Below are positions 40,609 to 56,736 of a stretch of DNA of 64,000 nt, in pieces (the first letter of the stretch is position 1; each line of letters opens with the position of its first letter). The notes under the pieces are model-generated. The model searched no databases and was not told where the DNA came from. It was given only the letters and a program-made list of their open reading frames with translations. Position numbers and translations under genes: made by a program. The DNA comes from an uncultured Chloroflexia bacterium (GTDB taxonomy: Bacteria > Chloroflexota > Limnocylindria > Limnocylindrales > CSP1-4): contig CAWHXD010000008.1 of the NCBI GenBank assembly GCA_963833225.1, forward strand, positions 512,001 to 576,000, given 5' to 3'.

Positions 40609-42614
40609 GCGGGCCGATGGGCCGCCCCATGGGTCCCGGCTCCGGCCGGCCCCGGCCCGGCAGCGGTCCCGGAAGCGGGCCTCCCCACATGGCGATGATG
40701 ATGCCCACCGCAAAGGCATCGAACTTCCGGGCATCGTTCATCCGGCTGATGCGCGAGCTCGGCCCGGAGCGGCTGCTGGTGGGAACGGTGTTCCTCCTGG
40801 GCGTCGTCAGCGTGTTCCTCGTGATCATCGGGCCCAAGATCCTGGGCGAAGCGACGAACGTCATCTTCGAGGGCGTCGTCGGCGTCCAGCTGGGCAAGAT
40901 CCCGGGCGTCGAGAACCTCTCGATCGACCAGATCGTCGCCGGGCTCCGCGCCCAGGGCCAGACCAACATGGCGGACATGCTGGCCTCGATGCCCAACGTG
41001 GTGCCCGGCCAGGGCATCGATTTCGGTCGCCTGACGCCCATCCTTGGGATCGTAGCCGGGATCTACGTGGCCAGCTCGCTGTTCAGCTGGGCCCAGAGCT
41101 ACATCATGGCCGGCGTCACCCAGCGGACCGTCTACCGGCTCCGTGGCCGCATCGACCACAAGCTCGGCCGGCTGCCGCTGGCGTACTTCGACCGCGAGAG
41201 CCGCGGCGACATCCTGTCGCGCGTGACCAACGACATCGACAACATCAGCCAGACGCTCCAGCAGAGCCTGACGCAGCTGATCACCTCGCTGCTCACCGTG
41301 GTCGGCGTGCTGATCATGATGCTCACCATCAGCCCGATCCTGGCGGCCATCTCCCTGCTCGCGGTGCCGGCCTCGATGGCCGTCGCGATGGTGATCGCGA
41401 AGCGGTCCCAGAAGGAGTTCGCCGCCCAGTGGGAGCGGACGGGCAACCTGAACGGCCACATCGAGGAAATGCACACCGGGCACGCCATCGTGAAGCTGTT
41501 CGGCCACCAGGACGAGGCGATCACCGAGTTCGATCGCCGCAACCAGGAGCTCTACCAGGCCAGCTACCGGGCACAGTTCCTGTCCGGGATGATCCAGCCG
41601 GCCATGACCTTCATCTCCAACCTCAACTACGTGGCGATCGCGGTCATCGGCGGTGTGCGCGTGGCCACCGGCACGTTGAGCCTGGGCGACGTCCAGGCGT
41701 TCATCCAGTACAGCCGCCAGTTCACGATGCCGATCATCCAGACCGCATCGATCGCGAACGTCCTCCAGAGCGCGGTCGCCTCCGCGGAGCGCGTGTTCGA
41801 GCTCCTCGATGAGCCCGAGGAGATCCCCGACCCGCGCCCCGCCACGGTCATCGTCGAGCCGGCTGCCGGTCGCGTGACCTTCGAATCGATCTCGTTCCGC
41901 TACGAGCCGGACAAGCCGCTGATCGACGATCTCTCGCTCGCGGTGGAGCCCGGCCAGACCGTGGCGATCGTCGGCCCGACGGGCGCCGGCAAGACCACGC
42001 TCGTCAACCTGCTCATGCGCTTCTACGACGTGCAGGGCGGCCGGATCACGGTCGACGGCATCGAGACACGCGAGGCAACCAGGGACAACCTGCGCCGGAC
42101 GTTCGGGATGGTGCTCCAGGATGCGTGGCTGTTCAACGGCACCATCCGGGAGAACATGGTGTATGGAGCCGAGGGCGAGGTCCCGGAGGAAGCGTTCCTC
42201 GCAGCCGCAGAGGCCGCCCACGTGGACCACTTCGTGCGGACGCTCCCCGATGCCTACGAGACCGTGCTGGACGACGAGGCCTCGAACGTGTCCGCGGGCG
42301 AGAAGCAGCTCCTGACCATCGCCCGGGCGTTCCTGGCCAACCCGCCGATCCTCATCCTCGATGAGGCGACGAGCTCCGTGGACACCCGCACCGAGGTGCT
42401 GATCCAGCGCGCGATGTCCAGGCTCATGAAGGGCCGGACCTCGTTCGTGATCGCGCACCGCCTGTCGACGATCCGCGACGCCGACATCATCCTCGTGATG
42501 AACGAGGGCAGCATCGTGGAGCAGGGCACGCACCAGGACCTGCTCGCGGCCAACGGCTTCTACCACGAGCTGTACGCGAGCCAGTTCGAGGAAGCGCTCG
42601 ACCCGGTGGCATAA
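40605..42614 (+). CDS. Heterodimeric ABC exporter subunit (TM288-like)
   Basis: TMD plus NBD with GPTGAGKTT, SAGEKQ, LDEATSSVD and AHRLST. Confidence 0.93.
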   Translation: MSGPMGRPMGPGSGRPRPGSGPGSGPPHMAMMMPTAKASNFRASFIRLMRELGPERLLVGTVFLLGVVSVFLVIIGPKILGEATNVIFEGVVGVQLGKIPGVENLSIDQIVAGLRAQGQTNMADMLASMPNVVPGQGIDFGRLTPILGIVAGIYVASSLFSWAQSYIMAGVTQRTVYRLRGRIDHKLGRLPLAYFDRESRGDILSRVTNDIDNISQTLQQSLTQLITSLLTVVGVLIMMLTISPILAAISLLAVPASMAVAMVIAKRSQKEFAAQWERTGNLNGHIEEMHTGHAIVKLFGHQDEAITEFDRRNQELYQASYRAQFLSGMIQPAMTFISNLNYVAIAVIGGVRVATGTLSLGDVQAFIQYSRQFTMPIIQTASIANVLQSAVASAERVFELLDEPEEIPDPRPATVIVEPAAGRVTFESISFRYEPDKPLIDDLSLAVEPGQTVAIVGPTGAGKTTLVNLLMRFYDVQGGRITVDGIETREATRDNLRRTFGMVLQDAWLFNGTIRENMVYGAEGEVPEEAFLAAAEAAHVDHFVRTLPDAYETVLDDEASNVSAGEKQLLTIARAFLANPPILILDEATSSVDTRTEVLIQRAMSRLMKGRTSFVIAHRLSTIRDADIILVMNEGSIVEQGTHQDLLAANGFYHELYASQFEEALDPVA

Positions 42615-42620
42615 GGCCTC

Positions 42621-42718
42621 GGCCCGGGCTCGCCGCGGGACTCGCCGCCCGACGCGGGACTCGGCCCTGGGCCCGGGCTCGCCGCGGGACTCGCCGCCCG
42701 ACGCGGGACTCGGCCCTG
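42621..42718. repeat. 49-bp perfect tandem duplication
   Basis: GGCCCGGGCTCGCCGCGGGACTCGCCGCCCGACGCGGGACTCGGCCCTG at 42621 and 42670. Partial third copy near 42740. Confidence 0.88.
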
Positions 42719-42800
42719 GGCCTGGCTGCGGCGGGCCTAGACTCGCCGCCCAACGCGGGACTCGGCGCCCAGCGGCCGCTGTCGGCCATCGGCCGCTGTC

Positions 42801-43088
42801 GGCCAGATTCAGGTGAGGTGCGCACGATCCGTCTCTTCGCGGCCGTTCATGGCCAGATTCAGGTGAGGTGCGCACTATCGCGTGCCGATCGCCCTCAGGG
42901 CGGCCAGATTCTTGCGAGGTGCGCCTTCGGCCAGCTACAGGCGGCCCAACACGCACTCCATCGGAATCTGGCCGCTTCGGAACCGCGGCGGCACAGGGCA
43001 TGAGCACGACCGCGGACCAGGTGGGCGCAATCCGTTCCCAGCGTCCGGCCAGATGCCCGCGGGATGCGCACCTGGTCTGAATCTGGCC
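42801..43088. repeat. REP-like array of GGCCAGATTC-N5-AGGTGCGC units
   Basis: Direct copies at 42801, 42851, 42902 and a degenerate one at 43047. Inverted copies end at about 42973 and 43088. Confidence 0.8.
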
Positions 43089-43118
43089 TGCTGCGCCCAC
43101 CCGGCGAGTGGATCCGCG

Positions 43119-43181
43119 GGGAACCGGGGTCGAGGCGGGAACCGGGGTCGAGGCGGGAACCGGGGTCGAGGCGGGAACCGG
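43119..43181. repeat. 18-bp tandem repeat x3.5
   Basis: GGGAACCGGGGTCGAGGC at 43119, 43137 and 43155, partial at 43173. Confidence 0.88.
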
Positions 43182-43364
43182 CTGTCGCCTGACCCGGAGG
43201 CCTGTCTGCCGGTCGGGACCCACGACCTGCCGCCTCAGGACCAGCAGCCCTTCCTGCTGATCCACGGCCGAACCACGATTGACTTGGAGCCTCGACCCGA
43301 GCATCGGCGACGGGCGCGGTGGGGCGACACCGCGCGGTGCCGCGGCAGACAGGGGTGTGGACGC

Positions 43365-44282
43365 GTGCCGAACCTGGTGATCGAGGCAACCGGCCTCACC
43401 AAGTCCTATGGATCGCGACGCGGCATCGAGGATGTCACGTTCGCGGTCGAGGAAGGCCGGGCGTTCGGCTTCCTCGGCCCCAACGGGGCGGGCAAGACAA
43501 CCACGATCCGCGTCCTGCTCGGGTTCCTGCGGCCAACCGGGGGCACGGCCCGCCTGTTCGGGGCCGACGCGTTCGCGATGGCCCCGAGCCTCCACGCGAA
43601 CGTGGCCTACCTCGGCTCGGACCCGGGGTTCCTCGGCGAGCTGACCGGCGCCGAGCAGCTGGACTACCTCGCGAAGCTCCGGGGCCTGCCGCGACGAGCC
43701 TGGGCCCGTCTCGCGGAGCGGCTGGAGCTGGATCCCACGGTCCGGATCCGCCGCCTCAGCCGCGGCAACCGCCAGAAGATCGGCGTCGTCGCGGCGTTCA
43801 TGGGCACGGAGCCGCTGCTCGTCCTCGACGAGCCGACCAACGGCCTGGACCCGCTCATGCAGCGCGAGTTCCTCGCCCTCCTCGCCGATGCCCGCGAGGA
43901 TGGCCGCACCGTGTTCCTCTCGAGCCACAACCTGGTCGAGGTCGAGCGGGCGTGCGACGAGGTCGCCATCATCCGTGACGGCCACATCGTCGAGATCACG
44001 AACGTCTCGGACCTCCTCGCTTCGCACTGGCGCTCGATCAACCTCGTGCTCGCGAGGCCGGCACGCGCCGCCGACTTCGAGCTGCCCAACGTCGAGATCG
44101 CCGCGCTCACGGGCCGCGAGGTCCACCTGATGGTCCGGGGCGACATCAACCCGCTGCTGGCGCGCATCGCCGCCCACGAGGTTGCCGACATCGCGATCAC
44201 GACCCCGGACGTCGAGGACCTGTTCCTCCGCCAGTACCGCGAGCCCGGCAGTCCCACGGTCCGCGAGGAGGTGCGGGCATGA
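43365..44282 (+). CDS. ABC transporter ATP-binding protein
   Basis: GPNGAGKTT, LSRGNRQK, LDEPT.GLDP and SSHNL.EV motifs. Confidence 0.92.
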   Translation: MPNLVIEATGLTKSYGSRRGIEDVTFAVEEGRAFGFLGPNGAGKTTTIRVLLGFLRPTGGTARLFGADAFAMAPSLHANVAYLGSDPGFLGELTGAEQLDYLAKLRGLPRRAWARLAERLELDPTVRIRRLSRGNRQKIGVVAAFMGTEPLLVLDEPTNGLDPLMQREFLALLADAREDGRTVFLSSHNLVEVERACDEVAIIRDGHIVEITNVSDLLASHWRSINLVLARPARAADFELPNVEIAALTGREVHLMVRGDINPLLARIAAHEVADIAITTPDVEDLFLRQYREPGSPTVREEVRA

Positions 44283-45073
44283 CCGCACTCCGGATGGAGC
44301 TGCGTCGCAACCGCTCGCTCGTGGTCGCGCTCGCGGTCGGCATGGGGGCATACGGCGCGATCATGGGCGCCATGTACCCGTTCATGGTCGAGAACGACGC
44401 CATCTTCACCTCCTACATGGAGGCGTTCCCGCAGGAGTTCCTGGCCGCCTTCGGGATGACCGGGGGGCTCAGCGATCCCGGCGTGTTCTTCACCACCTAC
44501 ATCGCATCGTGGCTGTGGCCGATCACGGCCGCTGCCGTCGCGCTGCTGCTGGGCACCCGAGTCGCCGTGGACCTGGACCGCGGCTTCCTCGACCTCCCAC
44601 TGGCCACGCCCGTGTCCCGGATCCGGTACCTGGCCGGGTCGATCGTCGGTCAGGCCGTCGCGATGGCGCTCGTCGCAGCCGCGACGGTCGGCGCGCTGTG
44701 GGTGGTCGGGATCGTAGCTGGCGCCGCCTTCGAGCCCGGGCGCTTCTTCCTCGCCGGAGTCATGTGCTGGCTCTTCGGGTGTGCCATCGCCGGCGTCACG
44801 ACCCTGTTCGCGGTCGCCACCCTGAGCCGCGGTCGTGCGGCCGGAATCGTGAGCGCCATCCTGATCGCGATGTACCTCGTGTTCGTGGTCTCCCAGATCA
44901 GCACCGACTGGTCGTGGCTTGCCCCCGTGAGCGCGTGGAACCATTTCCGGGCCACGGAGCTCATCGACGATGGCGTCCTTCCGGCCGGTGACGTCGCCCT
45001 GTTCACGGGTATCGCGCTCGCGGGCTGGGCCGCTGCGCTGGTTGCATTCCGAAGGCGGGACCTGGCCGCCTGA
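44279..45073 (+). CDS. ABC-2 family permease
   Basis: Six TM helices, G.LDL.LA.PVSR motif, ends FRRRDL. Confidence 0.88.
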   Translation: MTALRMELRRNRSLVVALAVGMGAYGAIMGAMYPFMVENDAIFTSYMEAFPQEFLAAFGMTGGLSDPGVFFTTYIASWLWPITAAAVALLLGTRVAVDLDRGFLDLPLATPVSRIRYLAGSIVGQAVAMALVAAATVGALWVVGIVAGAAFEPGRFFLAGVMCWLFGCAIAGVTTLFAVATLSRGRAAGIVSAILIAMYLVFVVSQISTDWSWLAPVSAWNHFRATELIDDGVLPAGDVALFTGIALAGWAAALVAFRRRDLAA

Positions 45074-45102
45074 CGCCCGCTCGCGCCGAAGCCGACGCGC
45101 GG

Positions 45103-47131
45103 CTAGGAGCTCCCCGGAGACGTCGCTTCCAGCACGGCGAGGATCTCGTCGCCGTATGCCTCGATCTTTGCCGGGCCCATGCCCTTGACCCGGCGCAGCG
45201 CCGCGAGCGACCGCGGCCGTGCCTCGGCGATGGCGGCCAGGGTCGCGTCGTGGGCGACGACATAGGGCGGGGTGGCGAGCGCCCGCGCCTTCGCCGTGCG
45301 CCAGCCACGGAGCGCCTCGTACACCGGATCCCCGGAGGCGCCGGGCCGGGTACGGGTGCGGGCCTCGAGCTCGGCGGCCTGGCCGGTCGGGGGCAGCTGG
45401 CGGATCCGGGTGCCCGGTCGCGGACGCAGGTCGAGCAGGAAGCGGCTCGGCTCGCGCTTGACCTCCCGGCCGCGGGTCTCGCGGCGTTCCGCCCACGAGA
45501 GCGCGAGGTGAGCGCGGGCACGGGTGATGCCGACATACAGCAGCCGGCGCTCCTCGGCAAGCGCGGCATCATCGTCCTTCGCCTGGCGGATGGGCAGGAT
45601 CCCCTCCTCCAGGCTGGGCAGGAACACCGCGTCCCACTCGAGCCCCTTGGCCCGGTGGTAGGTCAGCAGGTTCACGCCGTCGGCCGAGCCCGCCCGCTCG
45701 TGTGCCGCGCGGGCCTCCAGGTCACCGATCACGGCGGCCACGTCCGCCGCCGGGTCCCCGGCCACCAGCCCGTCGACGATCGCGACCAGGGTGTCCAGCG
45801 ACGCCTGGCGCTCGCGGGCCTCATCGCCCTCGGGAGCCGCATCCGCCTCCCAGCCGAGCGCTTCGGCCCAGCGGGCACGGATGGCGGCCGCCAGCTCGAT
45901 CCCGTGCGCGTCGATGGCCGGGCGTCGCAGCCCGATCACCGCCGCGCGAACCTCGGGCCGGTCGTAGAAGCGCATGCCCCGGACCTGGTAGGCGATCCCC
46001 GCGCGGGTCAGCCCCTCCTCGACCGGGGCCAGCTGGGCGTTCATCCGCACCAGGACGGCGATCTCCCCGGGTGCGATCCCCTCGTCGAGGCGGGCGCGGA
46101 TCCAGGTCGTCATCGCGGCCAGCTCCCGGGCCGCGTCCCGGTGCTTCGAGATCGTCGGCAGCGGGCCGTCGGGGCGCGTGGGGACCAGGCGCTTGGCACG
46201 CCCCTCGGCCGCGATCAGCCGGTTGGCGAGCTCCAGGACCTGCGGCGTGGACCGGTAGTTGCGGTCCAGCGGCAGCACGCGGGCGTCCGGCCAGCGGGTC
46301 GCGAACGAGGTCAGGAACGTCGAGGTCGCACCCGTGAACGTGTAGATCGTCTGGTCCTCGTCGCCCACGACGCACAGGTCCCGGCTGTCGGGTCCCAGCC
46401 ACAGCTCCAGGAGCCGCTGCTGGAGGGGGTTCGTGTCCTGGTACTCGTCCACGCTGAACCAGCGCTTGCGCGCGCGGACGGTCGCCGCGGCCTCGCTCGT
46501 CGGTCTCGAGCAGGTCGCCGGTCCAGAGGAGGAGGTCGTCGAAGTCGATCCGGTGCTGGCGGGCCTTCTCGCGCTCGTAGCCCCGATAGACACGGACGAA
46601 CAGGTCGGCAGGGATCGGCGGCTCGCGGCGGTGGCCCGTGGCCCCGGTCTCGTAGTCGCCGGGGGCGATGCGGCGCGACTTCGCCCACTCGATCTCGTCG
46701 GCGAGGTCCTTGGCGGGCGTGAACCGATAGTGCCCCGGCAGCTGGCGCGCGAGCCGGCTCACGATCAGCCCCTTGGAGTCGAGCAGGCCGGGAAGCGGTT
46801 CGCCGTCGTGACGGAGCGGCCAGAAGAACCGGAGCTGGCTCAGGGCATGGGCGTGGAAGGTCCGTGCCGTGACACCCGGCAAGCCGAGGGTCCTCAGCCG
46901 CTCGACCATCTCGCCCGCGGCCTTCTCGGTGAAGGTGACGATCAGCACCTGGTCCGCCGGGACGACGTCGGTCCCGATCGCGTAGGCGGCTCGCCGGCTG
47001 ATCACGCGCGTCTTGCCGGAGCCCGCGCCCGCGAGGATCGCGACCGGCCCGCTCGTGGCGAGGACGGCGTCTCGCTGCTCCGGGTCCAGGTCGGCGAGGA
47101 GCTGCTCGGGTTCGAGGCGCGTCCGGGTCAC
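45103..47131 (-). CDS. uvrD2: ATP-dependent DNA helicase UvrD2 with HRDC domain (frameshift near 46497)
   Basis: AGAGSGKT, VDEYQD, VGDEDQTIY, NYRS, YHRAKGLEW, YVGITRA and HRDC PPYVVAHD. The halves join on removing one base. Confidence 0.9.
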
Positions 47132-47208
47132 CGCCCGAGGCTAGCAGGGCTGGCTTTGGCGCGGCTTACGAACCGGGCGGGATGTGGTGCCAGGGGTTCG
47201 ATCGCGGC

Positions 47209-47751
47209 TCAGTGCCCCACGTTGGCCCAGTAGCGGCGCAGGCAGATGTCCGCTTCGTGCTCCGCACGAGCAAGGTCGTCGCGGCAGGCCTCGAGCCACG
47301 ACTCCGTGGCGAACAGCCACGCCAGCGCAAACGGCGGGAGCGCCATCACCACCCAGGTCGCGGCCGCCGCCGGATCCGCATCCGTGATCCGCGGCCAGAG
47401 CAGCAGCGCCAGCGCGAGGAGCAGGCCCACCGGCACCCAGCCGGCGATGATGAGGCTCAGCATGGCGTCGTCGCCGTCGATGTCCTTCGCGCGCTCCCAG
47501 GCACGCTCGCGCGCCTCGTCCGGTGGCCGCCCATGCAGCCGCTGCGATCCCCGGATCCAGGTCCCGTAGCCGAGAAGCAGGCCGAAGGCAGCCCAGGCGA
47601 TCCTGTTGCAGGCCTCCTCGCCCGGGTCCGCCACGAGCGGCCACAGGGCGAGCAGCACCAGGGCGCCCACGAGCGCGACGCCACGGCCCATCACGCCGGC
47701 CAGCGCCGCTCGCACAGGTGCCTCGACCGCGGAACGCGGGTCGCTGTCCAT
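47209..47751 (-). CDS. Hypothetical 4-TM membrane protein
   Basis: Hydrophobic segments. GACACT -10 box 6 nt before ATG. Confidence 0.65.
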   Translation of the reverse strand: MDSDPRSAVEAPVRAALAGVMGRGVALVGALVLLALWPLVADPGEEACNRIAWAAFGLLLGYGTWIRGSQRLHGRPPDEARERAWERAKDIDGDDAMLSLIIAGWVPVGLLLALALLLWPRITDADPAAAATWVVMALPPFALAWLFATESWLEACRDDLARAEHEADICLRRYWANVGH

Positions 47752-47809
47752 CGCCGGAGTGTCGGCCCTGCGCGATGCCATCCGCACGGGCCGATGGTGG
47801 TCCCCCGAC

Positions 47810-49144
47810 CGGGGCGGTTGGCCCGATCGCTACCCGCGTCCGCGCGGCCCGCACCGCAACCGAGCGTTCGCGCGGTGCCGCCGGTTGTCCGGTGGTCCGC
47901 GCGCCGGGCGCCGCCGGTGGTCCGCGCGCCGGCCCAACCGTCCGCCAGAGCCAACAAGTTGACCGCCGACCGAGGCGTTCGTCGGCCAGGACAGCTCCCC
48001 ACGGAACGAACGTGCCGCCCGCCGGACCAGGTGTCCGTTGCGCCCGACCGTTGATCCGGCGCGCGGCGCGGCAGCGGGACCGGACGCCGCGTCTCCCCGT
48101 CCCACCAGCCGACTCAGACGAGGAGGATGCCGCTGAGTGGCGGGATCCGACCCGCCCGCAGCGCTCGAGCCACAGCGGCGCCGTCGAGCGGAAACTGGGA
48201 CCGAAGAGCCTCGCGGTGTTCTGCGAGGATCCGGCGGTTGTGGGCCGTGTCGTTCACGACGAGGATGACGACCCCGCTGCCTGGATCGTCCCGCTGCTTG
48301 ATCGAGATGCGCCGCGAGAGCGCCTGTGCGTCGAGGATCTTCGACTCGCCCTCGATCGACGCCGTGGCACCCCCATCCGAGATCCGCCCATCCCACGCCC
48401 GAAGGTCGCCGGGAGCTGGGAGCGGAACCTCCCGCCTGAGCCGGAGCGGTGATCCGAGCATCGCGACGAAGCGATCCAGCAGAGCGAGCTGCGCCCGGTC
48501 CCGGATCCGCTCGCCCGATGGATACAGCGAGAGTGCCGGGGTCAGCCCAACCGCTCGAGCGGCGCGACACAGCAACTCCATCGGCGGGGCCGAAAGCTCG
48601 CGCCGGACCAGCCGGCCCCATCGTGAAGGCGAGACCCCGGCACGACGAGCGGCGGCGCTGCGGCTGATCCCGTGGATGACCCGTGCAGTCTCGATCTCGC
48701 GCACGGCGAACTCGACCAGGCGCCGAGCATCCTCGACACCCACGTCCATCGGGCGTGCTCGAGTTCCCATGGCGCAACCATGACAGGCGCCCGTCATCGC
48801 GGACTTATGCGGGCGGGCCCCAGGACTGCGGTGTCGTGCCCACGACCTGGCGCCTGGGGACCCTCCGCTCGACGATCTCGAGCTCGCCGCGCTCAGCGGT
48901 CCGTCCTCGCTCCTCTCAGCGGTCCAACCGTCCGCTCGGACCAACGTGCGTGCCGGTCATCGACCCGACCGTCACCTGAGCGCGGTCCTGAGCCATCAGA
49001 TGTGGCGCCGGGAGACGCAAACGTCGCCGCCGACCGACCGTTGAGCCGCGGGAGGAGGCGGAGGCGGAGGCGGAGGCGGAGCGGTGGGGGGGGAGCGACG
49101 GACGAAGCCGCGGGGCGGTTGGCCCGATCGCTACCCGCGTCCGC
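47810..49144. mobile_element. Putative inserted cassette bounded by perfect 34-bp direct repeats, carrying an HTH-nuclease-like gene
   Basis: CGGGGCGGTTGGCCCGATCGCTACCCGCGTCCGC at 47810-47843 and 49111-49144. Two degenerate 121-bp units at 47934-48054 and 48924-49044 flank the gene. Confidence 0.6.
48114..48770 (-). CDS. XRE-type HTH fused to PD-(D/E)XK-like (Vsr/DUF559-like) nuclease domain
   Basis: ARVIHGISRSAAARRAGVSPSRWGRL HTH, then REV...RAWD...IEGESK..DAQA putative catalytic pattern. CATGGT -10 box 6 nt before ATG. Confidence 0.7.
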   Translation of the reverse strand: MGTRARPMDVGVEDARRLVEFAVREIETARVIHGISRSAAARRAGVSPSRWGRLVRRELSAPPMELLCRAARAVGLTPALSLYPSGERIRDRAQLALLDRFVAMLGSPLRLRREVPLPAPGDLRAWDGRISDGGATASIEGESKILDAQALSRRISIKQRDDPGSGVVILVVNDTAHNRRILAEHREALRSQFPLDGAAVARALRAGRIPPLSGILLV

Positions 49145-50057
49145 CCACCAACCGGGCCATCGTCGTGAGCCTCCGGACCTCTCCGTCGGCCAGCTCGAGA
49201 TCGGCGGCCGCGACATTCTCCTCGAGTTGCTCGACCGTGCGGGCGCCGGGGATGGCGATCGTATTGGGGTGCGCGAGAACCCAGGCAAGCGACACCTGCG
49301 CAGGCGTGGCGCCGTACGCCGTCGCCACTTCCCCGATCACATCGCGGAGCGCGTCGATGCCCGGCCGCCGGCTGGCCATCCTGCCCTGCGGCCGCGCGAA
49401 CCGGCTGCTTCCGGGCATGGTCGTCCGACCCGCGAGCACTCCCTGGCCCAGCGGCGAGTAGGCCACCACCGCCCGCCCGTTGGCAGCCGCCCACGGGACG
49501 AGATCGTCGGCAGGTTCAGGAGCGGCCAGCGAGAACTGCACCTCGTTCGCCACGACGTGCCCCCGCAGGGCGCGTTCCGACTCCTGCCACTGGGCGAGCG
49601 TGAAGTTCGACACGCCGGCATGACGCACGATCCCCTCCTCCACCAGCGGCCGGACCGACTGCATCACGCGCCGCGCGGACACGAACGGGTTCTTCCAGTG
49701 GACGTAGAGCAGGTCGATCGCGTCGGTACGCAGCCGCCGCCGAGACCCGTTGACCTGCCAGGCGACGATCTGCTCGATCGGGGCGATCGGGGTGAACTTG
49801 GTCGCGACCAGGAGCCCCGCGCGGAGCTCGGCCGGCAGGGATGCCAGCGCCTCCCCGATGATCCGCTCGGAGCGGGCCGGGCCGTACCCCTCGGCCGTGT
49901 CGAGCATCGTGATCCCGAGCTCCGCTGCCCGCCGGATCAACGCAGGCGCCGTGACGTTGGCGTATTCCTCGCCGTAGCCCCACTCCCGGGTTCCCATCTG
50001 CCAGGTGCCCAGCCCGATGCGGGAGAGCCGCATCCCCTCGATCTCGATATAGCGCAT
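49131..50057 (-). CDS. Aldo/keto reductase
   Basis: GLGTWQ, DTAEGYG, VATK, IDLLYVHW, GVSNF, AYSPL and IPGA motifs. Confidence 0.93.
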   Translation of the reverse strand: MRYIEIEGMRLSRIGLGTWQMGTREWGYGEEYANVTAPALIRRAAELGITMLDTAEGYGPARSERIIGEALASLPAELRAGLLVATKFTPIAPIEQIVAWQVNGSRRRLRTDAIDLLYVHWKNPFVSARRVMQSVRPLVEEGIVRHAGVSNFTLAQWQESERALRGHVVANEVQFSLAAPEPADDLVPWAAANGRAVVAYSPLGQGVLAGRTTMPGSSRFARPQGRMASRRPGIDALRDVIGEVATAYGATPAQVSLAWVLAHPNTIAIPGARTVEQLEENVAAADLELADGEVRRLTTMARLVGGRG

Positions 50058-50131
50058 GACGGGAGTGTAGGTTCGATCGCCGAAGTGCTCTGTGACAGAC
50101 AGGTGGCACGGGCTCGCGCGATCATCACGCT

Positions 50132-50362
50132 ATGCACTGGCCGTTTCGGCGCCGGGACCCCGCTCCCGAACCACGCCGCCCCCACGCCCGCCCTGTCCTC
50201 CACGACCGTGTCGACGACGGCGTCTTCCCCGTGTTCGTGTGCTCCACGTGTGGCCGGACCGACCTGCCGGAAACCGGCGACTGGGACCCGCCGATCTGCG
50301 AGGAGTGCGACGCCGCCATCAACTTCGACGCGCTCACGATGGAGATGGACGACAGCGATTGA
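50132..50362 (+). CDS. Small CxxC-CxxC zinc-ribbon protein
   Basis: CSTC...CEEC in a 76-aa ORF with an acidic C-terminus. Confidence 0.55.
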   Translation: MHWPFRRRDPAPEPRRPHARPVLHDRVDDGVFPVFVCSTCGRTDLPETGDWDPPICEECDAAINFDALTMEMDDSD

Positions 50363-50391
50363 CTCATGAGGATGAGCCGTCTAGGCTCATC
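50359..50391 (+). promoter_or_regulatory. Leaderless TA promoter with operator palindrome
   Basis: TTGACT-17bp-TAGGCT, 6 nt before ATG 50394. GATGAGCC-N5-GGCTCATC inverted repeat overlaps the -10 box. Confidence 0.7.
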
Positions 50392-50393
50392 TT

Positions 50394-50660
50394 ATGACTA
50401 AGCGGTTGCAGGTTCTCGTCCCGGACACTGAGCTGCGCGATATCCAGCGCCTCGCCCGCCGCCGCCATCTGACGACGGCCGAGTGGGTGCGTCAGGCGCT
50501 GCGAGCCGCGCACCGGGCCGAGCTCGGCGCTTCGGCGGTTGACAAGCTCGCGGTCATTCGTCATGCGAGCGCCCATGCCTTCCCGGTCGGGGAGATCGAC
50601 TCGGTCCTGGCCGACATCGAGCGTGGCTACGCGGAGGCAGGGGTCGACGGGGAGTCGTGA
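50394..50660 (+). CDS. vapB: RHH-type antitoxin
   Basis: KRLQVL...T.AEWVRQAL RHH pattern. GTGA overlap with the PIN toxin. Confidence 0.8.
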   Translation: MTKRLQVLVPDTELRDIQRLARRRHLTTAEWVRQALRAAHRAELGASAVDKLAVIRHASAHAFPVGEIDSVLADIERGYAEAGVDGES

Positions 50661-51058
50661 CGGCCTTCGTCGACTCCAACATCCCGATGTACCTGGTCGG
50701 GGCTGAACATCCGAACAAGCACGCGGCCCGCGCGGCCTTGGAGCGTGCCGTTGCGGACGGCGAGCGCCTCGTGACCGATGCCGAGGTGATGCAGGAGATC
50801 CTCGATCGCTACACCGCGATCAACCGGCCTGCGGCCATCGACCCAGCGATCGAGGCCCTGCTTGGCGTGGTGGACGAGGTCGTTGCGATCGATCGTGAGC
50901 TGGTGCTCGCTGCGAGCCGCCTCGTTGCCCGGGTCGCGGGGCTATCTGCACGCGATGCGATCCATGTGGCGGTCATGCGCCGACACGGCATCGACGACAT
51001 CCTGACGTTCGATACCGGGTTCGATGTCGTGACCGGGCTCCGCCGCCGCCCTGCCTGA
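50657..51058 (+). CDS. vapC: PIN-domain toxin
   Basis: FVDSNI, QEI, SARDAIH and TFD.GFD motifs. Confidence 0.9.
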   Translation: MTAFVDSNIPMYLVGAEHPNKHAARAALERAVADGERLVTDAEVMQEILDRYTAINRPAAIDPAIEALLGVVDEVVAIDRELVLAASRLVARVAGLSARDAIHVAVMRRHGIDDILTFDTGFDVVTGLRRRPA

Positions 51059-51067
51059 CGGACCGAC

Positions 51068-52033
51068 TCAGGCCGTCGGGTTACGGATGAACAGGCGCAT
51101 CCGGCGCGGCGGGGGGTCGCGGCGCTCGCGGCCACGCCCCAGGCCGGCCAGCAACGCCAGGACCAGCAGGATCCACGGCGCCCCGCCCAGGAGGAGCTGT
51201 GCGACGACGCTCAGGAGGAGCTGTACGACGACGCTCAGCCAAGCGTCCTGCTGGCCCCCAAGGATGGGCAGGATCGAGACGAGGCGCGCCGCGATGAGCA
51301 CCACGCCCGCCAGCATCCCGATCGCCCAGGCGCGCCTCGGCCGTTGGCGAGCCTGGAACCCCACGAACAGCCGCACCGCCACGATGCACCACAGCACCGT
51401 GTCGACGGTGTACAGGAACAGGGCGGCGAGGTTCAGCCAGAACAACGGCTGCCCCAGCGCCGATCCCAACTCGTCGTCCTGGGGCAGGTAGAACGCTACG
51501 AGCCAAGCCCCCAGGATGACGCCCACCACGATGGCCGCTGCGAGCCGGGGCCTGCCGATGCGGGCACCGGCGTCGAGCATTCCGTCGGAGAGCGCCCAAA
51601 CCCCCGCGATCCCGATCACGCCCATACCCACCCTGAGCAGTCCAAGCGACAGCCCAACGGGCGACTCGAGGTCGAATGCGAGGTCGGTCGCCTCGAACAG
51701 CCACGTCTGCGCCAGCGTGACGGCGCCACCTCCGAGCACCTGCGTGGCGAGCAGCGCGGTCCCCCGGAGCAGCAGCGGCGTCCGCAGCCGCGCACCGGGC
51801 ACGCCCCACTCGAGCGCCGCGGGCAACGCGATGATCGAGGCGTCCGTGATGCTCCACCATGCGAGCCGCGCCACCTCGAGCCAGTTCCAGCTCCGGATGT
51901 CCCCCATGTCCAGAACGGGGCGTATCCCGTTCGCGAACCAGGCCGCGGCAACCACCAGCGAGACCCAGCCAACCCACGTGAGCGCCGAGAGGCTCGCTCC
52001 CGGGCCGCGCAGCTCGGGCGCCGGCACCCGCAT
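51068..52033 (-). CDS. Hypothetical multi-pass membrane protein
   Basis: About 8 hydrophobic helices. Short internal duplication LSVVVQLL/LSVVAQLL. Confidence 0.7.
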   Translation of the reverse strand: MRVPAPELRGPGASLSALTWVGWVSLVVAAAWFANGIRPVLDMGDIRSWNWLEVARLAWWSITDASIIALPAALEWGVPGARLRTPLLLRGTALLATQVLGGGAVTLAQTWLFEATDLAFDLESPVGLSLGLLRVGMGVIGIAGVWALSDGMLDAGARIGRPRLAAAIVVGVILGAWLVAFYLPQDDELGSALGQPLFWLNLAALFLYTVDTVLWCIVAVRLFVGFQARQRPRRAWAIGMLAGVVLIAARLVSILPILGGQQDAWLSVVVQLLLSVVAQLLLGGAPWILLVLALLAGLGRGRERRDPPPRRMRLFIRNPTA

Positions 52034-52120
52034 GGGACGCCGATGAACGATCGTGGCCACGCGGTCCCCTTCGATGACGGTGGACCTCGAGTGTAGGTCG
52101 CGACCGGCTGCCGATGGGAC

Positions 52121-54173
52121 CTATTCACCGCGCGGCGTCGCCACCGCCAGCGCGAACGGGAGCACGGGACCCGCGCCATGCTCGCGGAGGAGCGAACCCG
52201 GCCACGGTCAGCGTCCAGCGGGAGTCCACCAGGTCGTCCACGAGCAGGACTGGCCGCCGACGGACCGCCGCGGGGACCACCCCCAGCCGGGAGCGCGCGT
52301 TCGCCGCCTGCGTCGCGGAGTTGGCCATCGCGGACTGGGGCTTGCCATCGGCCGAGGTCAGACACGGCGCGAACGGGAGCGCCAACGCGCTCGCGAGCCG
52401 CCGCGCGAACGCCTCCACGGAGCCCGGACGGGCAGCGGACGGCACACACGTGACCCATTCCGGCATCGGGCTCGGACGCCATCGGCCGCGGATCACCTCC
52501 ATCGCCGCACCCGCGAGATGGTCCTCGAACCGCACATCCGGCCCGGGACCCGCCCGGAGCCCCCGGGCCACGTCCCTCCCCCACCCCGGGTCGCCCAGGA
52601 TGCACAGCGCCCGCCCGATCTCGTTGGGCTTCGCGATCTTGCCGCCCTCCGGCCACTGCCGCCGCGGGTCGATGGCCCGCACGTCCCGTCGGAGGTATGC
52701 GACCGCCTCCTGGACCAGCGCCGGCGACACGGACCGCGGCCAGCGGACCCCGCCGTCGTTCGCGCAGTGCCCGCAGTCGGCGGCCGAAGGATCGTTGAGC
52801 AGCCGGCCCAGGAACGCCATCCGGCAGCCATCGGTGTCGACGTAGTCGCGCATCGACGCCAGCTCCCGCCGCCGCGCCTCCAGCACGCCCGCCACCCACG
52901 CCTCGTCCTGCTCCCAGGGCTCAGCCGTCCGGACGAAGCGGCCGCGGTCGCGAGCCACCGCGCCGTCCACCTCGAGCAGCTTGAGCGCCTTCTCGATCTG
53001 GCCGTACGGCAGGTTCACCGATGCCTGGAGGGAGCGGATCGTGGCCGAGTCGGTCGCCTCGAGCGCCGCCAGGATCTCGCGCATCCGCGCCGCCGGCGGG
53101 AACGCCGTCGCGAGGAAGTACTCCGCGATCGCGTCGTCCTCGCGCCCCGACAGCAGGATCCCGAACGCGTTCTCCACCGCGCGCCCGGCCCGGCCCACCT
53201 GCTGGTAGTAGGCAATCGGCGACCCCGGCCGCTGGTAGTGGACGACGAACCCGAGGTCCGGCTTGTCGAAGCCCATGCCCAGGGCCACCGTGGCCACCAG
53301 CGCCTTGAGCCGGTTCGCCAGCAGGTCCTGCTCCAGCGCCTCGCGCTCGGCCGGGTCCATGTCCGCGTTGTACGGCTGGGCGTCGATCCCCTGCCCGCGC
53401 AGCCAGCCCGCCACCCGCTGCGTGTCCGCGACCGTGAGGCAGTAGACGATCCCGGCCCCGGGCATACCGGGCAGGTGCTCCGCGAGCCAGGCCAGGCGCT
53501 CCGCCTGGTCCCGGAGCGGGATCGCGTCGAGGTGGAGCGTGTCGCGCGCCAGCGGCCCCCGGATGACGGACACGTCATCACCCAGCTGGCGGGCCACGTC
53601 CTCGACCACGCGATCGTTCGCCGTCGCCGTCGTTCCGAGCACCGGCACGTCGGGGCCAAGCGACGGCAGGAGGCGGCCGATGCGGCGGTAGTCCGGCACG
53701 AACTCGTGGCCCCAGTCGCTGATGCAGTGCGCCTCGTCCACCACGAACATGCCGATCGAGCGCCGGATTCCGGGCAGGAGGCGGGCGTTGAAGTCCGCGT
53801 TCGCGAACCGCTGCGCGGACACGAACAGGACATCGATCCGGTCCGCCGCCAGGTCATCCTCGATCGAGGCCCAGTCATCGCGGTTGGCCGAGTTGATCGT
53901 CACCGCGCGCAGGCCCAGGCGGTCCGCCGCCTCGATCTGGTTGCGCATCAGCGAGAGGAGCGGGCTGACCACCAGCGTGGGGCCGTGTCCCTGGTCCCGG
54001 CGGACCCGGGTGGCGATCCAGTAGACCAGCGACTTCCCCCAGCCCGTGCGCTCCACCACCAGCGTCCGCGAGCCGTCGCGGACCACCGCCTCGATCGCCT
54101 GACGCTGGCCTTCGCGGAACGCCGCCCCGGGGCCGAACATCGTCTCGAGGTGGGCGCGGATGGCGTCGGTCAT
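52121..54173 (-). CDS. recQ: RecQ-family helicase with C-terminal PRTase/ComF-like domain (frameshift near 52199)
   Basis: RTGWGKS, VDEAHCISDWGH, TATA, LGMGFDKP, QQVGRAGR, Zn motif and LLVDDLVDSRWT. +1 correction gives GSLLREHGAGPVLPFALA with stop at 52121. Confidence 0.9.
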
Positions 54174-54272
54174 CGAAGGAGTATGCGGCCGACGCGGGTG
54201 GGGGCCGCTCCGCGGGTCCATGCATCCGCTCGGCCATCTTGCCAGCAACCCAGCATCCTGTATGCTCGGGCG

Positions 54273-54527
54273 ATGAAGGTGACCCTCGACATCGACGCAG
54301 ACCTGTACCGCTCGCTCAAGGTGGAGGCGGCTCGCACCGATCGGACCGTGCGCGAGATCGTGACCGACGCCATCTCGGACTGGCTCGAGAACCGCGAGGA
54401 GGCCGAGGATCGCGCGTCGGCGGCCGAAGCGCTGGAGGAGTACCGGCGGGACGGCGGGACCGCGGCGGAGGCCTTCTTCGAGCACCTGGCGGCCGAGACG
54501 AAGGCGACGTACGGGTCGGACGGTTGA
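54273..54527 (+). CDS. RHH-like antitoxin
   Basis: KVTLDID..LYR.LK..AA...T pattern upstream of RelE. TATGCT -10 box within an AGCAT-N5-ATGCT palindrome, 6 nt before ATG. Confidence 0.8.
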   Translation: MKVTLDIDADLYRSLKVEAARTDRTVREIVTDAISDWLENREEAEDRASAAEALEEYRRDGGTAAEAFFEHLAAETKATYGSDG

Positions 54528-54802
54528 AGCCGGGCGGTCCTCCGTACAGGGTGGACCTCTCCCCCGCCGCGGCCAGGCAGCTCCGCAGGCTGCCGCCCGG
54601 TGAAGCCGCGCGCCTCCGGGGACCGATCCTTGCCCTTGGCCTCGAGCCGCGACCACCGGGCGCCACGAAGCTCGTGGGGAGTGATTGGTGGCGGCTTCGC
54701 GTGGGCGACCTGCGCCTCATCTACGCGATCGATGACGAGCGGCACCTCGTGGTGATCCTCCGCGCGGCGCGCCGCAACGAGGGCACCTACCGGCGGCCGT
54801 AG
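54524..54802 (+). CDS. relE: RelE/ParE-family toxin
   Basis: Y.V...P.A.RQL..L, PRP.G..KL and WRLRVGD.R.IY motifs. TTG overlaps the antitoxin stop. Confidence 0.87.
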   Translation: MKPGGPPYRVDLSPAAARQLRRLPPGEAARLRGPILALGLEPRPPGATKLVGSDWWRLRVGDLRLIYAIDDERHLVVILRAARRNEGTYRRP

Positions 54803-54845
54803 CCAGGTTCGGCAACGCCCCGGCGGGCGACCCCCTCTGCCGCGG

Positions 54846-55223
54846 TCAGGCCCCGACGGTCTTCACGCCGTACCGGGCGAACACCGGGTCCCGGGTCACG
54901 ACGACCCCACCGACACGCTCGGCCTGGGCGACCAGCATCCGGTCGAACGGGTCGCGGTGATGCGGCTCGAGGCCACCCGCATGGACACCGTCGGCTGCCG
55001 TCACGGGAAGCTCGGCGAACCCGGCCGCTTCGATCGCCTCGACCAGGGTGGGCGGTGCTTCCAGCTTGCCAAGAGCCCGCTTGATCGAGATCTCCCACAC
55101 CGTCGCCGCACTGACCAACACGTCGTTCGCGGGGTCCGCGATACGCGTCCGCGCCTCCGTGCTCAGCCCGGCGTCATCCGCCAGCCACCAGAGCAGTGTG
55201 TGCGCGTCCAGCAGCAGCTTCAT
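54846..55223 (-). CDS. vapC: PIN-domain toxin
   Basis: LLDAH.LLW, WEI.IK, HRDPFDRML.AQA and TRD motifs. Confidence 0.92.
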   Translation of the reverse strand: MKLLLDAHTLLWWLADDAGLSTEARTRIADPANDVLVSAATVWEISIKRALGKLEAPPTLVEAIEAAGFAELPVTAADGVHAGGLEPHHRDPFDRMLVAQAERVGGVVVTRDPVFARYGVKTVGA

Positions 55224-55459
55224 GCCTCGAACGCATCGAGCAGGTCAGGCGGCGTCTCATCGAAGTCCGGAGCGATGCGGACGAACCCCCGCCACAGCCC
55301 CGGCTCCCGGCGCCGTGTCCGCGCTGCGAGCGGCACGAGCCGCGCCACCGGTCGGCCGGCACGGGCGATGAGGATCTCCTCGCCCGCCTCCGCTCGCTCG
55401 ACGAGGCGCGACAGGTGGGTCTTCGCCTCGTGCATGTTCACGAGGTCCGGCATGGGCAT
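55220..55459 (-). CDS. Phd/YefM-family antitoxin
   Basis: NMHEAKTHLSRLV...GEEI.IAR.G.PVARLVP. Start at 55459 or 55453. Confidence 0.9.
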   Translation of the reverse strand: MPMPDLVNMHEAKTHLSRLVERAEAGEEILIARAGRPVARLVPLAARTRRREPGLWRGFVRIAPDFDETPPDLLDAFEA

Positions 55460-55478
55460 CGACTCCCGACTGGCGGTG

Positions 55479-55502
55479 GACTTAGTCCGACTTAGTCTAG
55501 TC
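55479..55502. promoter_or_regulatory. Tandem palindromic operator for the Phd-VapC module
   Basis: GACTTAGTC twice (55479-55487, 55489-55497), overlapping a minus-strand TAGACT -10-like box. Confidence 0.6.
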
Positions 55503-55577
55503 ACATGCACTGCCGTTGGCAAGACTGGACGAGGCGGGATCAGGCGGAGAGCCCGGGCTGGGAGAGGCGAGCGGCCG

Positions 55578-55739
55578 CTATCTACGCCCAATCCCGGATT
55601 GTGCCGCTCCGATCGCGGCTCCAATGACGACTCCCACGCCGATCCCGACTCCCGCGTTGTCGGTCGCAACTCCCATGGCCGCACCGATCACGATGCCCAT
55701 GGCCACCCAGATCCCCATGACCTTCGATCGCTTGTCCAT
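55578..55739 (-). CDS. 53-aa glycine-zipper membrane protein (not in ORF track)
   Basis: MDKRSKVMGIWVAMGIVIGAAMGVATDNAGVGIGVGVVIGAAIGAAQSGIGRR. TATGCT -10 box 7 nt before ATG. Confidence 0.7.
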   Translation of the reverse strand: MDKRSKVMGIWVAMGIVIGAAMGVATDNAGVGIGVGVVIGAAIGAAQSGIGRR

Positions 55740-55803
55740 GAGGGGGAGCATACGTCCGGTCCGCCGGGCGCCGGCATCGCGCCGGCGCTACACGACCTGC
55801 GGC

Positions 55804-56736
55804 TCAGCCGCTGCCCGTGATCCGGTCCCAGGCCTCCTGCATCAGCTGCGGCGTGGCGGTGCCCGGGATGTGGGATGAGCCGTTGGCGAGCCGGTCGATG
55901 CGATCGTCGCCCTCCATCGCGTGCATCGACTCCTCGGGCGTGTGCCAGCCCGAGAGGTCCCGCGCCTGGCGCGTCACGCGCATCATCCGGCGGAAGATCG
56001 TCCTGTCCGGCTCGGTACCCCACTTCGCTTCCTGGGCCTCGTTGGTCGGCTGGTCGCCCTCCGGGCGCATCGGCGCCGGGAGCCGGCGCTTGAACGCCGC
56101 CCAGGCCGCCGCCTGCGCCTGCTCCACCGTGGCGCCCGTGAAGTCGTCGCCCGCCGCCATCGCGTTGATGACCGACTCCACGCGACCCCTCGTCATCTCC
56201 CACGCGCGGTCGGTGTCGGCCACGTGCTCGTTCTCGCCCACGAGCAGCTTCGCCGACCAGTCCTCGGTCACCTCCAGGATCTGGTTCCCGCGACCGTACT
56301 TGCCAATGCGATGGCGGCCCGGCGCCGGCCACCAGACCTCGTGGTGCGGCGGGGTGAGGTGGACGCTCCCGGGCTTCACGTGCCATGTCGTGTCCACCTG
56401 CTCCGTGTGCGCGATGCGGAACAGCGGCGCATCGGCCCCATAGCTGGTGCGCGTCAGGCCGCGGTTGCCGGGCCCGCTCGCGTCCATCAGGGCTCGGAGG
56501 CCGCCGGGCGGCGGCTGCTGGCGGTCCGTCCGGGTGAAGCCCAGGAGCTGGGCCGTGGCCGCGTTGCCCGCCGAGGCCTGGAGGTCCGCCGCGAGCCCGA
56601 TCCGCGACCCGAGGTCAAGGTCCGACGCGGCTCCGGCGCGGGCCGCCAGACTCGCGGGTACAGGGCGCGGCGAACGATGGGCGCCGGCCAGCGGCTCCTG
56701 GGCGTCGAGACGCCGAGCGCGGGTGCTACCGCGCAT
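55804..56736 (-). CDS. Hypothetical protein with LQxxAGNxA motif
   Basis: About 310-aa ORF with normal codon usage and N-terminal LQASAGNAATAQLL. Start uncertain (56736 or 56763). Confidence 0.65.
   Translation of the reverse strand: MRGSTRARRLDAQEPLAGAHRSPRPVPASLAARAGAASDLDLGSRIGLAADLQASAGNAATAQLLGFTRTDRQQPPPGGLRALMDASGPGNRGLTRTSYGADAPLFRIAHTEQVDTTWHVKPGSVHLTPPHHEVWWPAPGRHRIGKYGRGNQILEVTEDWSAKLLVGENEHVADTDRAWEMTRGRVESVINAMAAGDDFTGATVEQAQAAAWAAFKRRLPAPMRPEGDQPTNEAQEAKWGTEPDRTIFRRMMRVTRQARDLSGWHTPEESMHAMEGDDRIDRLANGSSHIPGTATPQLMQEAWDRITGSG

Follow-up and report, generated by a model that had tools for sequence, protein, structure and literature searches.

The HTH gene and its surroundings

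We analysed a window of 64,000 nucleotides from the genome of an uncultured Chloroflexia bacterium of the order Limnocylindrales (contig CAWHXD010000008.1 of assembly GCA_963833225.1, positions 512,001 to 576,000), and within it a 1.3-kb segment that lies between an aldo/keto reductase gene and a gene for a membrane protein. This segment carries a gene for a protein of 218 amino acids (aa), in which a helix-turn-helix (HTH) of the XRE type is joined to a domain predicted to adopt the PD-(D/E)XK nuclease fold. On either side of the gene lies one copy of a non-coding palindromic repeat, which we denote F1, and the whole is bracketed by a perfect 34-bp direct repeat (Table 1). The reductase, the HTH gene, the membrane-protein gene and a helicase gene follow each other in this order on one strand. 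The 1267 bp between the two 34-bp copies hold one supported gene, as had been proposed from the letters of the DNA (the sequence-only reading, below). That reading had also seen no DDE, HUH, tyrosine or serine recombinase inside the unit, and none was found there in the list of open reading frames (ORFs), in Pfam or in targeted profile searches.

We refer to the window's own genome, a 3.89-Mb assembly that is 86% complete, as G000, and to congeners and other related genomes by further G numbers; L numbers denote extracted loci and C numbers contigs. The relatives compared are kin rather than independent samples, and many of them are incomplete metagenome-assembled genomes (MAGs).

Table 1. Features of the locus, with their positions in the window
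Feature	Position	Strand	Basis
Membrane-protein gene, downstream neighbour	47209..47751	-	ORF list; homologous in 11 related loci; weak DUF4131 match
Left copy of 34-bp repeat, membrane-gene side	47810-47843		Exact repeat search
Short tandem repeat, two 19-nt cores at 25-nt spacing, abutting the module	47889..47932		Repeat search
F1 palindromic repeat, downstream of HTH gene	47931-48057	-	nhmmer E 1.9e-22; R1 E 7.5e-21; alignments A2, A4
XRE-HTH + predicted PD-(D/E)XK-fold gene, 218 aa	48114..48770	-	Pfam, alignments, predicted structure
CGCATAAG motif, 34-41 nt upstream of HTH-gene start	48804-48811	-	Read from sequence
F1 palindromic repeat, upstream of HTH gene	48921-49047	-	nhmmer E 6.5e-24; R1 E 3.0e-19; alignments A2, A4
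(GGAGGC)n short tandem repeat between module and right 34-bp copy	49051..49084		Sequence
Right copy of 34-bp repeat, reductase side	49111-49144		Exact repeat search
Aldo/keto reductase gene, upstream neighbour	49131..50057	-	Pfam PF00248 Aldo_ket_red, E 1.3e-57

The flanking modules are copies of a dispersed palindrome

The two modules that flank the HTH gene are marked by their ends: CCAACCGTCCGC occurs in the window only at 47934 and 48924, and CCGACCGTTGA at 48044 and 49034 plus one unrelated site. The sequence-only reading had described them as twin modules of 121 bp peculiar to this locus. The ends that it gave were correct, but the modules measure 126-127 bp and belong to a family that is dispersed in the genome. 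The two window copies align gap-free at 79 of 141 columns, and a search for the end motifs in loci of like orientation returned ten units of 126-127 bp in five loci. F1 is an imperfect palindrome of 127 bp with the ends GGNYCAACSGTCSG ... CSGACSGTTGRRCC, whose inverted ends span about 14 bp and whose halves are inverted images of each other at 49-57% identity.

A profile search followed by iteration found F1 at 8 loci in G000 (124-127 bp, 7 of them full length), spread over 3 contigs; none of the copies outside the window locus adjoins a paralog of the HTH gene. A sequence-only model of F1 built from 28 copies (R1), run on 70 genomes of the genus with both strands counted, gave matches in 41 of them: at least about 49 in each of G006, G013, G014 and G046, 33 in G008, 30 in G056, 4 in G004, 1 in G024 and none in G001. 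A strict F1 pattern was present in 6 of 61 genomes, and the reversed pattern, used as a control, in none. F1 copies are intergenic, and several lie between convergent gene ends.

The modules had also been suspected of encoding structured RNAs, and this suspicion found no backing. No consensus RNA structure was obtained for F1: RNAalifold gave -11.4 kcal/mol for 9 copies, with a covariation term of -0.27, and -1.77 kcal/mol for 28 copies, in which the terminal stems alone were paired. The z-scores of single-strand folding were -0.11, +0.22, -2.06 and -1.14, with one strand folding like its shuffles and the other slightly better. Rfam returned only 3 chance-level matches at E<=1 over positions 47000-50000, all below the gathering scores, and no tRNA or tmRNA gene was found in 40000-56000.

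On the + strand the module ends, G(C/T)CCAAC ... GTTGA(G/T)C, come close to RYYYAAC ... GTTRRRY, which we take to be the motif of integron attC sites. The modules might accordingly be attC sites, and the gene a cassette in an integrase-less cluster (CALIN). We find this idea hardly credible and rejected it: no integron integrase in G000 rises above the cut-off (TIGR02249, best 83.6 bits against 265), the F1 copies are solitary and dispersed over 3 contigs rather than set in arrays, their length is fixed at 127 bp, and their folds are weak and form no clean hairpin (z-scores -2.1 to +0.2).

Short tandem repeats (units of 6-73 nt in 2-5 copies) adjoin almost every F1 copy examined. They are found beside both modules of the window (47889-47932 and 49051-49084), in L013, L015, L016, L079 and L081, and at G000 C7:129600-129670. 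In G014 the whole upstream module is duplicated, with a period of 231 bp.

An HTH protein with a nuclease-like fold

The N-terminal part of the protein is an XRE-type HTH: the Pfam family HTH_31 matches residues 29-80 at 28.2 bits, above its cut-off of 27, and profile matches in the PDB include SinR, HipB and C proteins (7.8e-6 to 1e-3). More than 357 homologs were found at E<=0.001, mostly of 218 aa, and those that carry a name are regulators of "Candidatus Limnocylindrales". All 60 loci taken from reference genomes are Chloroflexota MAGs by title, and the matches in the ESM Atlas were to Chloroflexota clusters only, with no assigned name.

From an alignment of 33 sequences, AlphaFold2 predicted an N-terminal HTH and a C-terminal domain of a-bbb-a-b topology (predicted local distance difference test, 88.9), with helices at residues 92-103 and 148-161 and strands at 111-116, 125-131, 136-142 and 167-172. 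The top match of VIA-align for residues 94-218 was the XisH-like structure 2okf (Z 9.4, root-mean-square deviation 2.8, 104 residues aligned); further matches, for residues ~90-218, were 1y88 (AF1548; Z 8.9), NucS (2vld; Z 7.9) and the nuclease domains of Card1 and Can2 (Z 7.3-7.5). Foldseek returned weak rows only. On this predicted structure the C-terminal domain has the PD-(D/E)XK fold, as had been guessed from an E...D...E pattern in the translation. The pattern itself is real: E114 and D127, together with K158, are invariant both in the alignment of 33 protein sequences (A3) and in one of 8 (A5), E142 is invariant in A3 only and E140 in A5 only. As the canonical lysine position is not conserved (below), catalysis by this nuclease-like domain is no more than plausible. 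In PHROGs only the HTH was matched, with no defence or phage family by sequence, and a comparison of the 8 sequences of A5 revealed no loss of catalytic residues tied to the paralogs that lack repeats.

The GC content at third codon positions (GC3) is 0.78 in the HTH gene, compared with 0.90 in its neighbours. Upstream of the gene, a CG(Y/R)TAAG-like motif, often doubled, lies 20-45 nt before the start codon in all 5 G000 paralogs (besides the window gene, those at C14:92664, C19:343795, C19:877568 and C7:559325) and in the relatives inspected. From its sequence and position, this motif may be a shared promoter, operator or autoregulatory site.

Paralogs with repeat families of their own

A second palindrome, F2, of 148-150 bp with inverted ends of ~30 bp and sharp boundaries, occurs at 22 loci in G000. 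Its ends read CGGGCGCCCGGCGCCCCAACGG ... CCGTTGGGGCGCCGGGCGCCCG and share a CAACGG core with F1. Two F2 copies bracket the paralog on contig C14 (C14:91758-91906 and C14:92714-92862), and around the orthologs of this paralog F2 lies on both flanks in G013, on one in G014 and on none in G024. Another paralog, C19a, has an upstream palindrome (F3) of which there are 2 further copies. The sequence-only reading had suggested that paralogs might each have modules and site-specific direct repeats of their own; the modules are there in 2 to 3 of the 5, but long flanking direct repeats are absent from all 4 of the other G000 paralogs.

Beyond G000, the upstream and downstream flanks were alike (>=40 nt, E<=1e-3) at 13 of the 54 homolog loci that had sufficient flanking sequence, compared with 2 of 158 shuffled pairs; the former number is a minimum, as this BLAST test overlooked even the diverged pairs of G000. 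In G086 the twin flanks are 146 bp long and 78% alike, with 9 more copies on the chromosome, and in G087 the twin flanks have 1-2 more copies. The F1 model at E<=1 matched 18 of 108 flanks and 1 when the flanks were reversed. From 8 and 22 loci in 3.9 Mb, we estimate the chance that two copies fall within 300 bp on either side of a given gene at ~1e-6 to 1e-5. Bracketing by twin repeats is a general feature of this gene family, with F1, F2 and F3 at three G000 paralogs and distinct families in G086 and G087.

These pairings bear on the alternative explanation that F1 and F2 are ordinary miniature inverted-repeat transposable elements (MITEs) moved by an unrelated enzyme, perhaps unassembled or extinct, and that they flank HTH genes through joint duplication or because such spacers are preferred. 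The families are indeed widespread in the genus whatever the locus holds, as the R1 counts in G046 and G056 illustrate, twin flanks are absent at many homolog loci, and the assembly of G000 is incomplete. We nevertheless consider this explanation distinctly unlikely. The pairing is specific to the family (F1 with this gene, F2 with the C14 paralog, others in G086 and G087) and is hardly ever reproduced by shuffled flanks; no Y1/HUH transposase was found in the whole G000 assembly at its 86% completeness; and the only larger elements seen with these ends were the gene-bearing units. No DDE parent with F1 or F2 ends turned up, and no systematic search for one was made.

F1 is or was mobile

We compared four solo F1 copies of G000 with the corresponding places in five relatives. 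At C7:129673 the copy is part of a ~300-bp insertion that is absent from G008, G013, G024 and G006; its flanks are 91-95% identical in G008 and G013, where the gap measures 3-21 bp as opposed to 323 bp in G000, and the convergent stop codons that flank the site are 13-31 bp apart in all four genomes that lack it. G024 and G008 lack the copy at C14:48006. The one at C8:581147 is common to G013 and G008 and not found in G014, G024 and G006, and at C7:213275 a module occupies the orthologous place in G013 and G008, the comparison being ambiguous in G024, G014 and G006. Two of the four copies are thus specific to G000 among relatives with matching flanks, and one is shared with G013 and G008 only. 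F1 behaves as a small non-autonomous element that is or was mobile.

No target duplication abuts the ends of the 7 F1 and 21 F2 copies inspected. F1 arrives together with additional DNA and short tandem repeats, and in some cases with copies of local sequence; what was added next to the G000-specific F1 insertion is not repeated anywhere else in the genome. The repeat at C14:48006 lies 18 nt from a copy, 41-44 bp long, of the 3' end of the adjacent gene. In G006, at ~842.7 kb (L036:1418-1779), a solo F1 between convergent genes is bracketed by a duplication of 64-68 bp (91% alike), the duplicated stretch being a GC-rich, terminator-like hairpin region. Long flanking duplications occur at 2 of 19 solo F1 copies (41 bp, 95%; 68 bp, 91%), with only 12-16-nt matches in shifted controls, and at 0 of 22 F2 loci and 0 of 88 controls. 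These untidy junctions, which lack a fixed target duplication, fit cut-and-repair better than transposase chemistry. Spread by cutting and repair had been part of the sequence-only reading, and at the level of F1 and F2 the junctions are in line with it; for the 1.3-kb unit, which that reading had taken to be the mobile element, the picture is different.

The HTH gene is a resident of its site

In G000, G013, G006, G014 and G004, and in three further genomes represented by L079, L081 and L114, the HTH gene has the same two neighbours. The complete module-gene-module unit is found there in at least six species: hidden Markov models detected it, with the modules at similar distances from the gene, in G000, G013, G006, G014 and L079, and in L081 diverged copies were recognised by eye and by flank BLAST. 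Empty sites, which had been predicted, do exist in some congeners: in G024, G001 and G005 the reductase is followed directly by the membrane-protein gene (65 bp apart in G024). In G003 and G021 the membrane-protein gene is also absent at the junction. Between the reductase and the membrane-protein gene, G002 (L025) and G022 (L024) hold another ORF of ~600 bp on the opposite strand, and at the same junction G018 and G017 hold 1.4 and 3.3 kb of other DNA; the differing DNA in these four genomes marks the junction as a recurrent site of gene gain and loss. By neighbour identity, the occupied genomes form the nearer group, in which G024 is the only near genome with an empty site, and this pattern of occupancy fits one old gain. 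The tree of the same-site genes is an unresolved polytomy, in which (G000,G013), (G006,G014) and G004 are separate, and it leaves the orthology of all same-site genes undecided.

The four other G000 paralogs are solitary genes between housekeeping genes, in a synteny that is conserved across the genus, and the unit itself occurs once in G000. The HTH gene is sedentary, resident and vertically inherited. Its single copy and its stable synteny in at least six species speak against the 1.3-kb unit as the mobile element.

The 34-bp direct repeat is not the end of a currently mobile unit

The 34-mer CGGGGCGGTTGGCCCGATCGCTACCCGCGTCCGC is identical in its two copies. No further match with up to 3 mismatches was found in the window, 0 of 100 shuffles gave two matches, and the 34-mer occurs exactly twice in the whole assembly, so it is perfect, as originally described, and not a common dispersed repeat. 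It is also true that the end of the reductase gene is duplicated, as the stop codon and the last 11 coding bases fall within the right copy.

The relatives show that the two copies have different histories. In G013 and G008 the left copy is retained at 31 of 34 bases. Its right part has a homologue in the empty site of G024, in the DNA upstream of the membrane-protein gene; in L079 and G004 only a faint TAGGGG.CC trace is left at this place. The main haplotype of the closest relative (G013:C6 and C79) has the unit and lacks the reductase-side copy. Its reductase gene ends in GGGTAGGGTCCCGAGG, a stretch that resembles the reductase ends of G006 and of the empty G024 and is only ~57% like the 34-mer in our own alignment. 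In a third G013 haplotype (C7), the repeated stretch, of ~27 nt, is partly different. The absence of the reductase-side copy from this main haplotype means that the repeat does not belong to the unit as an intrinsic end, and the claim that it is the unit's terminus or target duplication is not supported.

Because the left copy is old and conserved and the right copy is not general, we think that the repeat is probably a duplicated junction, composed of the reductase 3' end and the DNA upstream of the membrane-protein gene, which arose together with the insertion of DNA; the duplicated reductase end probably decayed in most lineages and was refreshed in G000. The left copies of G000 and G013 diverge by 9%, and we estimate the chance of 34/34 identity at ~0.04 if the duplication were old. 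The perfect identity is probably recent and best explained by later conversion or re-duplication. The 34-bp repeat is not the terminus of a currently mobile unit, and it is no proof that the 1.3-kb unit moves at present.

These data also bear on two other explanations. In one, module, gene and module together form an active, transposase-free selfish unit, of which the 34-bp repeat is the target-site duplication. The perfect repeat that brackets the unit, the empty sites in G024, G001 and G005, a GC3 below that of the neighbours, and the paralogous arrangements F1-gene-F1 and F2-gene-F2, which imply at least one past copying of a whole unit, would all agree with this. Such a unit is nonetheless improbable, as G000 has one copy of it, at least six species have this site filled, the other paralogs keep their synteny throughout the genus and have no long flanking repeats, G013:C6 and C79 lack the reductase-side copy, and long flanking repeats are rare where repeats have inserted (2 of 19 solo F1, 0 of 22 F2). 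The Logan contigs of four public runs (from 22 that matched, with a best word share of 0.33) contained no excision joints, but at a depth of only 2-4, with no piece that spans the unit, they are too thin to judge excision, circles or habitat.

In the other explanation, the 34-mers are the attL and attR sites left by an integrative element that inserted at the 3' end of the reductase gene, decayed and lost its recombinase. The duplication of a gene's 3' end including the stop codon is the classical footprint of such elements. We hold this to be very improbable: the HTH gene is the only one between the repeats and no recombinase or remnant lies there, all occupied relatives hold the same small unit, no larger element with an integrase was seen among 14 or 60 loci, and similar long duplications occur at two solo 127-bp repeats that have no room for a recombinase.

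The assembly of G013 contains three or four versions of the locus (L013, L026, L027 and L028, on contigs C6, C7, C79 and C19), which differ at the 3' end of the reductase gene; on C7 the reductase sequence is distributed over three reading frames. The multiple versions suggest a strain mixture or a duplicated region.

Neighbouring genes

The membrane-protein gene likely starts at the ATG at 47751, although its ORF stays open to a GTG at 47787, and a conserved GCCGACACTC lies upstream of it in 11 related loci. Beyond it, a UvrD-like helicase (45103-47131, - strand) is read in two long overlapping ORFs, 45103..46593 and 45821..47131, and this split suggests a frameshift or an assembly error. On the other side of the locus, at 50394-51058 on the + strand, an RHH_1 ORF (E 8e-4) overlaps an ORF for a PIN domain (E 1.1e-17), the two forming a VapBC-like toxin-antitoxin pair, and ahead of this pair lies a cysteine-rich ORF of 76 aa (50132-50362).

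A proposed pairing of the resident gene with its own repeats

We propose that the HTH-nuclease gene and the repeats beside it form a pair of the REPIN-RAYT kind, in which a resident gene is accompanied by non-autonomous palindromic repeats of its own, and we place the probability of this reading at about one half. It builds on the anatomy of the locus, the fold, the dispersal and polymorphism of the repeats and the recurrent twin flanks. In the mechanism that we envisage, the HTH protein, and not another enzyme, would move the repeats: through its HTH it would bind the CAACGGTC-type motif shared by the termini of its own repeat family, and a dimer would probably sit on the inverted ends; the nuclease-like domain would then nick or cut at the repeat ends; and host repair would copy, move or maintain the repeats, with each paralog keeping its own family. 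Cutting followed by host repair would explain the missing target duplications, the added DNA, the short tandem repeats and the occasional local duplications of 34-68 bp.

Several observations weigh against this proposal. The gene and the repeats are linked by position only; there is no repeat family at 2 of the 5 G000 paralogs, 41 of the 54 homolog loci lack twin flanks detectable by BLAST, and the same-site genes in G004 and L114 have no clear modules. Paralogs occur in every genome of the genus, which deprives co-occurrence with repeat load of any power to discriminate. With an assembly that is 86% complete, a further transposase of G000 may have escaped notice, and the copy numbers there (8 and 22) are low compared with classical REPINs. 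As for the protein, the match of its fold is middling, since the Z of 9.4 has to be set beside the tool's note that the best Z is typically 7-8 without a clear Foldseek match, and no nuclease family was matched in Pfam (E<=0.1, beyond the HTH), NCBIfam (0) or PADLOC (0). The canonical (D/E)xK lysine is not conserved, position 144 being K, R or H and position 142 E, I or V, so the domain may not cut.

A protein that does not cut could be a transcription regulator and nothing else. Its nuclease-like domain would then serve oligomerisation or ligand binding, and the palindromes would be composite operator or insulator sites, including sites of autoregulation. Such a role would suit the clear XRE HTH, the CG(Y/R)TAAG motif conserved before every paralog, the stable synteny of the genes, the intergenic position of the repeats and the lack of conservation of the canonical catalytic lysine. 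We still judge it unlikely, because elements of fixed length (127 or 150 bp) with inverted ends of ~14-30 bp are unlike operators, several copies lie between convergent gene ends where there is no initiation to regulate, clean lineage-specific insertions are seen between flanks that are 91-95% identical, and the acidic triad E114, D127 and E140/E142, together with K158, is kept across paralogs that are 40-60% divergent.

The one well-described case in which a resident enzyme maintains repeats that are long-lived and vertically inherited is that of the REPIN-RAYT systems, which are HUH-based. Going beyond the pairing itself, and with clearly less confidence, we tentatively suggest that Limnocylindrales-type Chloroflexota represent a second, independent invention of this lifestyle, in which HTH-PD-(D/E)XK genes spread their own 127-150-bp palindromes by sequence-specific cutting and host repair. 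A literature search on Limnocylindria repeats and on PD-(D/E)XK proteins with miniature inverted repeats found no description of such a system. If the suggestion is correct, the lifestyle would be convergent and would here be built on an HTH-guided protein of restriction-endonuclease fold. A large family of "XRE regulators" from an abundant uncultured lineage would gain a function, and a compact, sequence-specific DNA-binding nuclease would come with a candidate target, namely the repeat ends. Should the protein bind without cutting, the paired gene and repeat families would still be a natural code for HTH specificity. At the locus itself, the conspicuous 34-bp repeat is a by-product, and the signal proper lies in the less striking twin modules.

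Comparison with known systems

Integrative elements that duplicate their att site share with this locus a direct repeat that restores the 3' end and the stop codon of the target gene. The insert here is tiny, however, contains no recombinase, and its repeat is missing from the main haplotype of the nearest relative.

The Rpn/YhgA-like proteins (Pfam Transposase_31) are reported to be PD-(D/E)XK proteins that were long annotated as transposases and are tied to RecA-independent recombination (PMC5350276). They would thus share their fold with the predicted C-terminal domain described here, which has no sequence match to Rpn in Pfam. We know of no flanking repeat families for Rpn.

The best structural match of the C-terminal domain is XisH (2okf, Z 9.4). 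xisH is reported to be required for excision of the fdxN element, and the role of XisH is described as unclear (PMC4874684). Unlike XisH, which has no HTH fusion, our protein is fused to an HTH; it has no sequence match to XisH (Pfam E<=0.1) and no XisI or XisF partner beside its gene. We regard the likeness in fold as a lead and not as a test.

ERIC, Correia/NEMIS and RUP are MITE-like bacterial repeats, and ERIC is 127 bp long. F1 and F2 resemble them in being non-coding, 100-150 bp in length, with inverted ends, intergenic, often at gene 3' ends, and polymorphic in presence and absence. They differ in that they have no short fixed target duplication and that, without a systematic search, no DDE insertion sequence turned up whose ends would make it their parent; the only longer units with F1 or F2 ends carry the HTH-nuclease gene.

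The closest parallel is with REPIN-RAYT systems. These are described as consisting of a short, vertically inherited gene, single-copy per type and flanked by dispersed intergenic palindromes, with a repeat type of its own for each gene type and no target duplication (PMC3337134; see also PMC3116915 and bioRxiv 10.1101/2021.07.10.451892). The gene described here is likewise flanked by a dispersed palindromic family (F1 at 8 loci; F2, which lies around the C14 paralog, at 22 loci), each gene type has its own repeat type (2 of 5 paralogs being without any), the gene is single-copy per type and vertical, with paralog sites conserved across the genus, and the repeats show no target duplication. On the other side of the comparison, the protein combines an XRE HTH with a predicted PD-(D/E)XK fold in place of an HUH/Y1 enzyme and has no Y1_Tnp match, and the repeats are longer (127 or 150 bp), have weak hairpin potential and low copy number, and insert with extra DNA. 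As the defining HUH enzyme is absent, we propose that this system works like REPIN-RAYT without being a member of it.

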